Shown here in pieces: positions 1,602 through 10,484 of a stretch of DNA of 11,714 nt (the stretch's first letter is position 1; each line of letters starts with the position of its first letter). The notes under the pieces were generated by a model. That model saw nothing but the letters and a program-made list of their open reading frames with translations. It was not told where the DNA came from and ran no database searches. The position numbers and the translations under genes are program-made. The stretch is from Hormoscilla sp. (GTDB taxonomy: Bacteria; Cyanobacteriota; Cyanobacteriia; Cyanobacteriales; Desertifilaceae), in contig JBFRWI010000156.1 in NCBI GenBank assembly GCA_051439505.1, positions 1 to 11,714 of the forward strand, in the 5' to 3' direction.

Positions 1602-2696
1602 ATGGGCAATAGCTTCGGGCATTTGTTTAAGATCACTACCTTTGGGGAATCCCACGGCGGCGGAGTCGGCGTCATAGTTGATGGGTGTCCCCCCCGACTG
1701 GAAATTAACGCGGAGGAAATTCAGCGAGAATTGAACCGCAGGCGTCCGGGACAGAGTAAAATAACCACCCCCCGTAAAGAAGCAGACAGTTGCGAGATCC
1801 TCTCGGGGGTGTTCGAGGGCAAAACCTTGGGTACCCCGATCGCCATTTTGGTCCGGAACAAGGACGCTCGCTCCCAAGATTACCAGGAAATGGCCCAGAA
1901 ATTTCGCCCTTCCCATGCCGATGCTACCTATGAAGCGAAATACGGGATCCGCAACTGGCAGGGGGGCGGACGGGCCTCCGCCCGGGAGACCATCGGTAGA
2001 GTCGCAGCAGGGGCGATCGCCAAAAAAATCCTCCAGGTAACCGCTGGCGTAGAAATCATTGGTTACGTCAAGCGGATCAAAGATCTCGAAGGAGTCGTAG
2101 ATCCAGACACCGTCACCATGGAGCAAGTGGAAAGCAATATCGTTCGCTGTCCCGACCCCGAATGTGCCGATCGCATGATCGCCCTGATCGAGGAGGTCGG
2201 GCGTCAAGGAGACTCACTGGGAGGAGTCGTGGAATGCGTGGCCCGCAACGTCCCCCCAGGTTTAGGAATGCCAGTATTTGACAAGCTGGAAGCCGACCTG
2301 GCAAAATCGATTATGTCCTTACCCGCCACTAAAGGGTTTGAAATTGGCTCGGGCTTTGCCGGAACCATGTTAGCAGGCAGCGAGCATAACGATGAATTCT
2401 ACACCGACGATCGGGGCAAGCTTCGCACCCGCACCAACCGTTCGGGGGGCATTCAAGGAGGGATTTCCAACAGCGAACCGATTATTTTGAGGGCAGCATT
2501 CAAGCCCACTGCTACCATCAGAAAAGAACAACGCACGGTAACCAGTGCCGGGACCGAAACGGTGCTAGCAGCAAAAGGACGTCACGACCCTTGCGTTTTA
2601 CCAAGAGCCGTGCCTATGGTAGAAGCAATGGTCGCTCTGGTGCTATGCGATCACCTGCTGCGTCACCAGGGTCAATGCGGAACATTAAAAATTTAA
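1602..2696 (+). CDS. aroC: chorismate synthase
   Basis: MGNSFG...[34 protein letters not shown] motifs. GAGGA RBS supports the ATG at 1602. Confidence 0.98.
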
Positions 2697-2703
2697 GTTA
2701 TCA

Positions 2704-3600
2704 ATGAAAACCAGCAGTTCATCCGATTTTTCCCCAACGGTGTTTGCAGTTCAGTTCTGGGGAGTGCGAGGCAGCGTTCCCGCCCCTGGTGAAGAAACAG
2801 TCCGCTATGGAGGCAATACCTCCTGCATAGAAATGCGAGTGGGTGGTAAGCGCCTGATTTTTGATGGCGGCACTGGCATCCGGATGCTGGCCAACAGTCT
2901 CAAACCTCATATGCCTCTAGAGGCCCATCTGTTTTTCACCCACTACCACTGGGACCACATCCAAGGGATACCCTTTTTTACTCCCCTGTTTACTCCCGAC
3001 AATCACATCTACATCCGAGGCACTATCCCGCCAGAAAGTCAATCCCTGGAAGAGCATTTCATGCACCGGGTACTGCACGTCCATTCGCCAGTGCCAACCC
3101 CGACATTGCGAGCTGACCTGAAGTTCTCTGAATTAGAACCGGGTAACGTGATGATGCTAGATGATATTAGCATCGAAACAGGTCATTTAAACCATCCCAA
3201 TGGGGCCATGGGATATCGCATTACCTGGGGCGGACATACGGCTGTTTACTGCACCGATACAGAACATTATCCCGATCGCCTGGATGAAGATGTCCTACAC
3301 TTAGCCCGTAACGCCGATGTCTTGATTTATGATGCCATGTACACCGATGATGAATATCTTAACCCTAAATCTCCCAAGGTGGGCTGGGGACATTCTACTT
3401 GGCAGGAAGGGGTGAAAGTGGCCAAGGCGGCGGAGGTGAAGCAACTGGTGATTTTCCATCACGAACCTAACCACTCTGATGATGCCCTCGATCGCATCGC
3501 ATCGCAAGTCCAAGAAGCTTATCCCCATGCTATACTTGCCCGAGAAGGAATGATTCTGCCAGTCATTAAACCCCCAACTTCCCGTTGGAAGCGACACTGA
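2704..3600 (+). CDS. MBL-fold metallo-hydrolase (RNase Z/phosphodiesterase-like)
   Basis: FWGVRGS, YGGNTSC, DGGTG, THYHWDHIQG (HxHxDH), TDTEH, WGHS, FHHEP. Starts 7 nt after the aroC stop. Confidence 0.92.
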   Translation: MKTSSSSDFSPTVFAVQFWGVRGSVPAPGEETVRYGGNTSCIEMRVGGKRLIFDGGTGIRMLANSLKPHMPLEAHLFFTHYHWDHIQGIPFFTPLFTPDNHIYIRGTIPPESQSLEEHFMHRVLHVHSPVPTPTLRADLKFSELEPGNVMMLDDISIETGHLNHPNGAMGYRITWGGHTAVYCTDTEHYPDRLDEDVLHLARNADVLIYDAMYTDDEYLNPKSPKVGWGHSTWQEGVKVAKAAEVKQLVIFHHEPNHSDDALDRIASQVQEAYPHAILAREGMILPVIKPPTSRWKRH

Positions 3601-7903: not shown

Positions 7904-9064
7904 TTACAGGAGTCCTCCGATCGCGATCGCCCCCCGATCGGCCACTCCCGGTTCTCCCAAAGACTGACGCATTTGCTGATAGTCAGAATGTATTTGCTGG
8001 CGTCGGACAGGGTTAACTAACAAGTCCATTCCTGCCGAGACGATCGCCTCTGGGGTAGCTTCCTCTTGGAGAAACTCGGGCACAATTTCTCTCATCTCTA
8101 CCAGGTTGGGGGGAGACATAAAGGGAATCGAAAATTTTAACAATTTGCGAGCAATAAAACCAGTGATCTGACTCACGCGGTAAAGCACTACCTGGGGGAC
8201 ATCCAAGAGAGCAAGTTCTAAGTTTACTGTACCAGATTTTGTAATTGCTAAGTCAGCAGACGCCAATACTTCTTCAGTCTTACTGCTGATTGTAGCATGA
8301 ATACCGTAATGGCCGATCGCCCGTTGAATGGGTTCGCGAAATTCTTCCCTAGACAGAGGAATCCAAAAATGAACATCCAATTGGGATTGAATCATTTTCG
8401 CAGCAGCAAAGATCGCGGGCAGCAAATATTTTAACTCTTGGCTGCGGGAAGCGGGAATGAGGGCGATCGCCTTTTTTTCAGCATCAATTCCCAAAGCAGT
8501 CCGGGCCTGAGTCCGAGAAGGAAATATTAGCATTCTATCTATTAAAGGATGACCCACCCAAGTCACATGGGCCCCATGTTCGGCAAAATAACGGGCTTCT
8601 TCTGGGAAAATAGCTAATAGCAAGTCGGTAATTTTCACAATTTGCGCAGTTTCCCGCTGCCGTGCCGACCAGACCCAAGTCTGAGGCGCAATGTAGTAAA
8701 CTATGGGTACTTGGGGCAGATAGCGACGGAGAAAAGTACCAATACTTAAATTAGGTCCGGGATAGTCCAGCAACACCACTAGATCGGGAGGATTTTCCCG
8801 CAAATATTTCTTAGTTTTCTGCTGAATCTTAAACGTCGGCAAAACATAAGGCAAAGATTCCCAAATGCCCACAGAACCAATGGCCGTCGTGTTCCCTAAC
8901 AACTGCGCCCCCGCTGCCGCCATGCGATCGCCCCCCAATGCGATAATTTCGAAAGAGTAACCTGCGGCCACAGCTTGCCGTTGTAGGGCCTCAATCAACA
9001 GGGCCCCTTGCAGATCCCCGGACACCTCTCCCGTACTGATAAAAATCCTCCGACCATTGTTCAT
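7904..9064 (-). CDS. lpxB: lipid-A-disaccharide synthase
   Basis: RIFISTGEVSGD, DYPGPN, YYIAPQ, FPEEA, VGHPL, PASRSQE, KSGTVNLE, PEFLQ motifs; lpx gene context. Confidence 0.97.
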   Translation of the reverse strand: MNNGRRIFISTGEVSGDLQGALLIEALQRQAVAAGYSFEIIALGGDRMAAAGAQLLGNTTAIGSVGIWESLPYVLPTFKIQQKTKKYLRENPPDLVVLLDYPGPNLSIGTFLRRYLPQVPIVYYIAPQTWVWSARQRETAQIVKITDLLLAIFPEEARYFAEHGAHVTWVGHPLIDRMLIFPSRTQARTALGIDAEKKAIALIPASRSQELKYLLPAIFAAAKMIQSQLDVHFWIPLSREEFREPIQRAIGHYGIHATISSKTEEVLASADLAITKSGTVNLELALLDVPQVVLYRVSQITGFIARKLLKFSIPFMSPPNLVEMREIVPEFLQEEATPEAIVSAGMDLLVNPVRRQQIHSDYQQMRQSLGEPGVADRGAIAIGGLL

Positions 9065-9126
9065 TGCTAATTGTTCATTGCTAATTGTTCATTGCTAATT
9101 GCTAATCGCTAATCGCTAATTGCTAA
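9057..9126. repeat. mixed heptamer array (TTGTTCA/TTGCTAA/TCGCTAA), 10 units
   Basis: Units read directly; the array overlaps the lpxB start codon. Confidence 0.9.
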
Positions 9127-9177
9127 TTGCCTATCAACGATTGTCCATTCTCAATGGGTGTGGTCATGCATTTGTTG

Positions 9178-9420
9178 CAGCGGGGGATCTCCCCTTCTTC
9201 ACTTCTTAATTATTTAAAAATGCGCAGGAGAACCCTGCCACAGGGCTCTCCTTGTGGAGTCGAAGTGAGCGATTTAGAGATTTACCTGACCCGGAGTTAC
9301 GCAAAAAGCGCCTCAGAACCGTTGTTTAACCCAAGTGGGGCGCTTTTTTTTGCGCAGTCCGGGCCGGGCATCCCTGGTTTCGCTTGGGCTTGTGTTACGT
9401 TGACTTTCCAAGCCCCCATG
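9178..9420 (-). other. highly structured segment: nested IS4-derived MITE-like repeat or ncRNA
   Basis: Hairpins at 9386-9415, 9268-9384 (117 nt) and 9226-9252; imperfect termini CATGGGGG / CAGCGGGGG. From memory it resembles a cyanobacterial IS4-end-related repeat (GGGGCTTGGAAAGTCAAC); not verified. Confidence 0.5.
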
Positions 9421-9439
9421 AACCAATATTGCTAAATAT

Positions 9440-9469
9440 AGTATAGCTAACGGGAGTGGAATTTGTCAA
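9440..9469 (-). promoter_or_regulatory. near-consensus sigma70 promoter inside the element, facing lpxB
   Basis: TTGACA (9469-9464), 18-nt spacer, TATACT (9445-9440). Confidence 0.65.
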
Positions 9470-9656
9470 GGGTTTAGGAAATTTTTTTCCCTCTCATGGG
9501 ATATTTATTTGATCTTCATATCACTTTTCTACCGTCACACAACGGGTGTGGCTCATTTGTAGTCGATCGGGAAGAAACCCGGGGTTCGAGAGGAGTTACC
9601 GGGTTTCATGCTCACGGGCCTGCCCCTCTACCAACCGGTGCAAGACCACACCCTTC

Positions 9657-10484
9657 TCAATTGTCCATTTTCAATTGTCCATTCTCAATTTTTCTTTTTC
9701 CGGGAATGGGACCGCGACGGCCTTCCGTAAGAGACGATCGCATGAACTGGTGCAGATGTTGTAATAGTTCGCTATCAGGTAGCAATTCTAGCTGTTCTAG
9801 GGCTTGACGCAAAGTATAATTAGAACGATAGAGTATTCTAAAGGCTTTTTTTAGCAATTCTAACTCCGAGGAAGTCAAACCAGCACGTTTCAGTCCCACC
9901 AGATTGAGCGATCGCACGCGAGAAGGATTTCCCTCCACTAGCATATAGGGTGGCACATCCCGATCGATCCGACTCATGCCCCCCACCATAGCCATGCTAC
10001 CAATATGGACGAATTGATGAATTCCCAACATGCCACCAATCACCGCCCGGGACTCAATTGTTACGTGACCTGCCAAGGCTACAGAATTAGCAATTACCAC
10101 CTCATCCGCGATCGCGCAATTATGGGCCACGTGAACGTAAGCCATCAGCAAATTGCCATTCCCAATGACCGTCATTTCTCCCGCCCGAGTTGCCCGGTTA
10201 ATCGTCACGTATTCGCGGATGCGGTTGCGCGAGCCAATTTTCACCAAGCTAACAGACCCATCATATTTCAGGTCTTGGGGTTCCAAACCAATAGCCGCCC
10301 CCGGAAATATTTTATTGTCTTCTCCAATTTCCGTCCAACCATCGATCGTTACATGGGGCCCGATCGTCGTTCCCGCCCCAATTACAGCATGTTCTCCAAT
10401 GACAGCATAAGGTGCCACCTGCACCGTTGGATGCAGCTTAGCACCTGGATGAATTGCAGCAGTTGGATGAATCAGTGTCGTCAT
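9657..10484 (-). CDS. lpxA: acyl-ACP--UDP-N-acetylglucosamine O-acyltransferase
   Basis: IHPTA hexapeptide repeats, PQDLKY, IREYVTINR, HVAHNC, IHQF, LNLVGLKR. ATG at 10484 with AAGGGA upstream. Confidence 0.97.
   Translation of the reverse strand: MTTLIHPTAAIHPGAKLHPTVQVAPYAVIGEHAVIGAGTTIGPHVTIDGWTEIGEDNKIFPGAAIGLEPQDLKYDGSVSLVKIGSRNRIREYVTINRATRAGEMTVIGNGNLLMAYVHVAHNCAIADEVVIANSVALAGHVTIESRAVIGGMLGIHQFVHIGSMAMVGGMSRIDRDVPPYMLVEGNPSRVRSLNLVGLKRAGLTSSELELLKKAFRILYRSNYTLRQALEQLELLPDSELLQHLHQFMRSSLTEGRRGPIPGKRKIENGQLKMDN

Follow-up and report, generated by a model that had tools for sequence, protein, structure and literature searches.

A conserved, structured RNA gene, predicted from sequence, inside a MITE-type element between lpxA and lpxB of Hormoscilla sp.

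In PMC3942029, Mutator-like transposases are associated with 8- or 9-bp repeats and with ends of 18–39 bp, and the ISKra4 family is described as transposing via a circular intermediate. Miniature elements carrying promoters or small RNAs are also on record, among them the Correia elements of Neisseria and QMITE1/2 of Coxiella with Cbsr3, 13 and 16 (PMC10969869). The element described here resembles these in being non-autonomous, in carrying a sigma70 promoter with a predicted RNA product, and in its many intergenic copies; it differs from them in that its RNA is a separate, covarying gene family, which is multicopy and retained in genomes free of the MITE.

The stretch of DNA analysed, hereafter the window, comprises 11,714 nucleotides of Hormoscilla sp. 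(assembly GCA_051439505.1, contig JBFRWI010000156.1), and holds the cyanobacterial genes lpxC-fabZ-lpxA-lpxB, which are clustered on the minus strand. A 498-bp transposon (9156-9653) lies between lpxA and lpxB, whose identities are backed by Pfam. The features of this region are as follows:

7904..9064, minus strand: lpxB, the downstream host gene (Pfam)
9148..9155, plus strand: left target-site duplication TTCTCAAT (ATTCTCAAT if read from 9147), within a 7-mer tandem array; a relative has the 9-bp form at the right end
9156..9177, plus strand: left terminal inverted repeat, of the GGGTGTGGTC family
9178..9210, plus strand: MITE-type linker, also found downstream of 10 of the 25 RNA copies whose 3' end is intact
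9214..9252, minus strand: terminator-like 3' hairpin and U-run; the stem (9252-9226) has 12 pairs with compensatory changes, and the U-run lies 5 nt off the stem
9214..9435, minus strand: predicted non-coding RNA of about 220 nt, its start placed from the promoter
9440..9469, minus strand: sigma70-type promoter, TTGACA-18-TATACT, with hexamers kept and a spacer that varies
9470..9543, minus strand: upstream portion of the cassette, containing an imperfect palindrome; present in some copies and with a ragged boundary
9544..9653, plus strand: inner MITE of 110 bp with two ends of its own, the outer one being the right end of the element
9654..9661, plus strand: right target-site duplication, with the lpxA stop codon
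9657..10523, minus strand: lpxA, the upstream host gene (Pfam)

The inverted end arms (9156-9177 and 9632-9653) are 22 nt long with 82% complementarity and hold a 15-nt core with one mismatch between the two; no transposase gene was found within the element, over which the longest open reading frames reach about 100 aa. These features bear out the original prediction of a non-autonomous element with inverted ends, as does the exact 8-bp duplication of TTCTCAAT on both sides (9148-9155 and 9654-9661), the right copy of which holds the lpxA stop codon (9657-9659, minus strand). The cargo was also read correctly as a sigma70 promoter, a structured segment and an internal copy of the transposon end: the promoter (9469-9440, minus strand) matches the consensus at 11 of 12 positions, the whole element folds with z = -6.8, and the internal end lies at 9544. 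The window element is a composite, running from a MITE end and linker through the cassette to a complete 110-bp MITE, and the inner end type, GGGTGTGGCTCATTT, serves as an end at other sites too, with a partner end and a 9-bp duplication at 5 of its 21 matches. The 7-mer tandem array around the element (window 9056-9155 and 9654-9693) has taken the place of the spacer of about 26 bp that congeners have, and at the lpxA end the same array lengthens LpxA by about 10 residues (IENGQLKMDN).

Searches of the genome of the window (G000) with the transposon end motif returned 663 matches (326 + 337). Among 280 candidate end pairs within 8 kb of each other, 103 were flanked by exact 9-bp and 8 by exact 8-bp direct repeats, compared with 5 exact 8-bp matches per 200,000 random end pairings. 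Given this rate of 111/280 against 5/200,000, the duplication in the window is not a product of chance; the original prediction had allowed that it might be coincidental amid heptamer repeats, and excising the element with one 8-bp copy in silico also regains the 7-mer phase of the flanking array. The expectation of further copies with different duplications was confirmed, as the 9-bp duplications differ by site (101 distinct among 103). Accepted end pairs (n=119) are mostly short, with 99 of them spanning 125-174 bp. The window element is a non-autonomous element with terminal inverted repeats, of MITE type, probably belonging to the Mutator-like DDE group.

One G000 element of 2441 bp, with matching ends and flanked by a 9-bp duplication, encodes an intact UPF0236 protein of 471 aa, which matched only itself when searched against G000 with tblastn. 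Its best NCBIfam match is the ISKra4 model NF033572 (179.6 bits, E 1e-52), followed at a distance by ISLre2 with 65 bits. Elements with the same ends also occur in two congeners: three identical copies of 1943 bp in G004, two of them with 9-bp duplications, and one of 1996 bp with a 9-bp duplication in G001. The transposase of the G004 elements is 75% identical to that of G000 and does not match as a single open frame; no relatives of the transposase were found among viral contigs. From these comparisons, the window element is likely to be mobilised in trans by an ISKra4-like DDE transposase. Compared with the ISKra4 / p-MULT 4 Mutator-like DDE elements, as described in PMC3942029, it shares inverted repeats that start with G and end with C, direct repeats of 8-9 bp, cyanobacterial members and a partner transposase whose best match is NF033572; it differs in lacking a transposase, and the partner scores below the 205-bit cut-off of that model. 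The original guess of ISKra4 is thus upheld by the best-matching model and by the full-length elements with the same ends, and held back by this score and by the absence, in 220 flanks of 111 elements, of the insertion peak 13-17 bp upstream of sigma-A promoters that distinguishes the narrow ISKra4 group. With no flank peak in its favour, promoter-targeted insertion is also not supported as the route by which the RNA gene was captured.

Other cargoes were observed between ends of the same type. One G000 element (C174:29000-30404) has a 9-bp duplication and a gene for a protein of about 230 aa, and another (C81:36974-39096) has a 9-bp duplication and a 464-aa transposase-like open reading frame, putatively IS4-like. 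Also found in G000 was a second promoter cassette family of five copies (C100:114542+, C228:2628-, C70:85378-, C80:2640- and C9:75364+), consisting of a strong TTGACA promoter, a G-rich run with GGG tracts and an A/T-rich stretch; four of the five terminate in the end of the window MITE or in a close variant of that end.

About 300 bp of the window element recur 28 times in G000, comprising 25 full copies, one split by the 7-mer array and two cut by contig ends. Among congeners, G001 has two copies of this cassette and G004 three, and none was found in G002 or G003. Named sequence records with the RNA core are Hormoscilla, and a genus-specific 22-mer, with 2 mismatches allowed, matched G000 only among 401 genomes of the phylum. 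The order within copies is promoter, RNA of about 205-225 nt, hairpin and U-run. The TTGACA promoter is kept in 26 of the 28 G000 copies, the remaining two being those cut by contig ends, and its 17-18-nt spacers drift while the hexamers are kept (14 spacer types in 19 copies parsed). A strict test for ends plus duplication was passed by 2 of the 28 copies; three congener copies have clean boundaries and 9-bp duplications, and RNA-carrying elements with ends and duplications elsewhere measure 471 bp (C54), 741 bp (L002), 539 bp (L008) and 555 bp (L003). Given the result of the strict test, and that many G000 copies sit among other repeats, this transposon explains only part of the spread. No diverged parent copy of the RNA was found in G000, and no neighbouring gene is conserved among the neighbours listed for the copies of G000, G446 and G577. 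In two copies, L043 (G000 C145:44247-44382) and L188 (G446), short tandem repeats break the RNA after its 5' part, and the promoter is still intact.

The RNA is predicted to fold as an H-type pseudoknot in which one loop holds a hairpin and the other a long rod. A short helix, P1 (9424-9421 with 9379-9376), would enclose the hairpin P2 (9417-9386) and the 5' strand of a crossing helix (9384-9380 with 9272-9268), the partner of which lies about 110 nt downstream; a near-invariant helix, P5 (9368-9357 with 9295-9285), has a variable arm between its strands. Across 43 sequences, the crossing helix occurs as AGCGA/UCGCU, AACGA/UCGUU, AGCAU/AUGCU and AGCUA/UAGCU, and P1 as GGUU/AACC and GGCG/CGCC, so that both show two-sided changes; for the crossing helix, the script chose the best-pairing partner within a short window rather than scoring a fixed alignment. 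In 31 aligned rows, 98.7% of the cells of the nested helices are paired and 6 of 29 pairs changed on both sides. None of 500 shuffles equalled the real alignment and slid controls reached 24-61%, a test that is inflated by kinship among the sequences, the covarying cells coming from few related subtypes. In the P5 region 9 of 11 pairs never vary, and the arm that P5 closes ranges from 33 to 68 nt.

No open reading frame of conserved length was found across the RNA copies, and the lack of a short conserved frame led us to reject a type I toxin mRNA or leader peptide. The Rfam 15 covariance models, run on the window region and seven loci of a second family, gave no match of meaningful score covering the RNA. 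We found no description of it in the literature searched; the main text of PMC12873609 has no match to the genus or the pseudoknot, and the supplementary structure tables of that source could hold it. The predicted RNA gene is uncatalogued, conserved and structured, and the transposon is of an ordinary type. Two further candidates were set aside, namely a bacterial Y RNA, as Ro60/TROVE is present in 0/5 genomes, four of them carriers, and a tracrRNA, as a crude array search gave no clear CRISPR repeat complementary to the RNA.

The RNA core pattern occurs in 5 of 401 genomes of the order, including two genomes of one genus in another cyanobacterial family: G446, a single-contig genome with 9 full copies (covariance model), and G577, with 15 (wider model). 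The TTGACA promoter is present in all 17 copies inspected from these two genomes, and four diverged RNA subtypes coexist there. In a tree, all 27 rows of genus g1 form one supported clade; the deeper branching order is unsure because of long branches. The transposon end motif has no match in either genome, so that this transposon explains none of the spread in them; the RNA gene is independent of this MITE, rides in it as a passenger and is no product of it, which weakens the original prediction; the RNA gene is probably older than the MITE that carries it. Seven of the nine G446 copies have a counterpart in G577 with a flank in common: for three of these pairs the RNA is 99% identical against 55-86% in the adjacent DNA, and for the other four the RNA is 89-95% identical. 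Copies with a short arm often have no U-run in these genomes, making their termination uncertain. Six short-arm copies (G577 L176, L178, L181 and L187; G446 L122 and L188) follow paralogous genes for large repeat proteins with one shared C-terminus, which suggests that short-arm copies spread with gene-end duplication in this genus. Applied to 150 genomes of the order, the wider model added only five weak matches (17-18.5 bits), all over open frames, and blastn found no match to the RNA in plasmid and phage collections. Pattern matches in viral contigs (0, 1, 5 and 4) and metagenome contigs (14) are taken as chance, since most lie in reading frames and none exceeds 16 bits with the RNA models, the second of which rescored 12 of the 14 metagenome loci.

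We propose that MITE ends landed on both sides of a pre-existing RNA gene and came to be used as a pair, and that an ISKra4-like DDE transposase would move the resulting composite in trans. The cassette promoter would transcribe the RNA, with most transcripts ending at their own hairpin, and lpxB would then depend on read-through. The job of the RNA may be protein binding and not base-pairing. We judge the chances to be about even that it serves as a scaffold or decoy for a protein that it binds, a suggestion that comes from the fixed sequence of the helix where loops and arm vary freely; with no partner gene among the neighbours listed for the copies, it is this pattern of conservation that speaks for protein binding.

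The patchy occurrence (5/401 genomes of the order), high copy number and pseudoknot would also be expected of a selfish or catalytic module favouring its own copying, as a ribozyme or as a guide or template for a mobile-element enzyme supplied in trans, though we hold this to be unlikely. One of the closest described parallels to the RNA is HEARO, the omega-RNA of IscB (RF02033), which likewise stands alone in the same genome in multiple copies, is structured and has a similar size; a short motif near the 3' end of the present RNA resembles the end of the G000 HEARO RNAs. However, RF02033 does not match the RNA at any copy, its 14 matches in G000 all lying at other loci; PF14239 (IscB/IsrB) is absent from both second-family genomes, G446 (99% complete) and G577 (95%); and the RNA has no freely variable 5' guide, its leaders being related A/T-rich variants that look like mutated descendants and not fresh guides. 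The 14 HEARO-like loci of G000 (e.g. C166:11480 and C2:75816) mostly lack IscB and are followed by a hairpin with a T-run, and the genome has two intact 421-aa IscB genes. An IS110 bridge RNA was rejected, as the IS110 recombinase has no matches in G000 (93% complete). One RNA copy lies 3 kb from a type XIII retron reverse transcriptase, but that locus has its own, different, duplicated RNA-like region, and the RNA has no invariant G after the crossing helix that could serve as a retron branching G, leaving a retron role unsupported. The retron (L090:252-957; G000 C213, ~2580-3283) consists of a SWIM protein and RT_XIII (E 1.5e-198), with a region of about 300 nt tandemly duplicated between its two genes; a UG13a-type (DRT) reverse transcriptase, apparently split into two open reading frames, was also observed in G000 (L091/L102; C165, ~30150-32000). 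The RNA presumably leaves no room for the P3/L3 of an HDV-like ribozyme, which counts against a ribozyme, and copies stay at sites common to G446 and G577, which counts against a module that favours its own copying.

The RNA also resembles the cyanobacterial multicopy small RNAs Yfr1/Yfr2 and 6S RNA in its own promoter, its 3' hairpin and either a C/U-rich linker (Yfr1) or a long rod (6S), and is longer than Yfr1/Yfr2. It differs from all of these in having no Rfam match, in its predicted pseudoknot and in being patchy and mobile. A family of sibling small RNAs that regulate by base-pairing, with the C/U-rich linker pairing to ribosome-binding sites and the folded 5' part as a stabilising platform, would fit the CUCAC / ACUC(C)AC stretch that lies unpaired just before the hairpin in both families and is, by our own reading, partly like the Yfr1 motif. 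Yet the linker is more variable than the helices and some subtypes have it in a shortened form, and 9-28 copies with an invariant helix exceed the need of a short seed, making such a role quite improbable.

The element is absent in 5/5 relatives, namely four congeners and one other member of the family, which have a short spacer instead. Alleles without the element were thus recovered, and an exact empty site with matching flanks was not: a contig of X5 that is about 7% divergent crosses the site by 23 letters, one TTCTCAAT among them, but its flanking arrays differ; X8 gave a joint skipping the element, weak in having a 30-letter side only; and no joint at the exact duplication came from runs X1-X3, where two joints were set aside because their sides had 22 letters. 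In the X6/X7 relative, one contig runs from lpxB (17/273 differences) across 43 unseen letters into the 3' end of the RNA, and a second starts on the promoter side, crosses the 110-bp MITE and enters lpxA (40/501 differences), where an extra A makes the right duplication 9 bp, ATTCTCAAT; X6 and X7 are probably one data set, in which no single contig spans the site. On the simplest reading, the insertion is common to this relative, 6-8% divergent, and older. The earlier view of a recent insertion is therefore doubtful, since the relative seems to have the cassette in the same position.

The promoter faces lpxB with only the 7-mer array between the element and the lpxB start, the U-run stands off the hairpin stem, and promoters borne by MITEs are on record (PMC10969869), so that the cassette might be seen as a portable promoter driving lpxB with the structured part as leader or attenuator. 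As the 12-bp hairpin and U-run intervene between promoter and gene, read-through would be needed to supply lpxB. Furthermore, the genes downstream of the other copies bear no relation to one another and often lie on the opposite strand, which speaks against conservation for the sake of a cis role, and we consider this explanation very unlikely. Of the original idea of a mobile promoter/RNA cassette facing lpxB, the mobile cassette stands and the supply of lpxB is weakened by the 28 unrelated sites of the RNA gene and by the intervening hairpin. Inert DNA that yields no working RNA, with palindromes reflecting the history of the MITE or a DNA-binding site, could account for an invariant inverted repeat readable as DNA and for a transcript not seen in X5 contigs, but is most improbable given G-U-tolerant and two-sided changes in five helices, promoter hexamers kept beside drifting spacers, and three orthologous pairs 99% identical against flanks of 55-86%. 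In X5, an RNA run, depth was 29.7 on the RNA core and 13.8 on a 13-kb contig, which shows no enrichment since the RNA has several copies and contigs cannot measure expression.

Returning to an RNA that binds protein, we tentatively suggest that it represents a class of pseudoknotted bacterial RNAs not described before, of which it would be the first member, acting as an RNP scaffold or catalytic core, with several deeply diverged subtypes in one cyanobacterial family and, in another, a rise to 28 copies by hitch-hiking on MITEs that would represent dosage expansion of a working RNA gene. What stands at this locus is a predicted RNA, conserved and structured, that matches no catalogued family and occurs in 9-28 copies per genome with promoters intact; at this site, it also brings a promoter and a hairpin into the midst of the lipid A genes. 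The second family offers diverged subtypes, and the single contig of G446 makes the design of probing and pull-down experiments straightforward. If expressed, the RNA would be abundant in filamentous cyanobacteria and would clearly exemplify the spread of a complete RNA gene, and not of a promoter alone, by miniature transposons.
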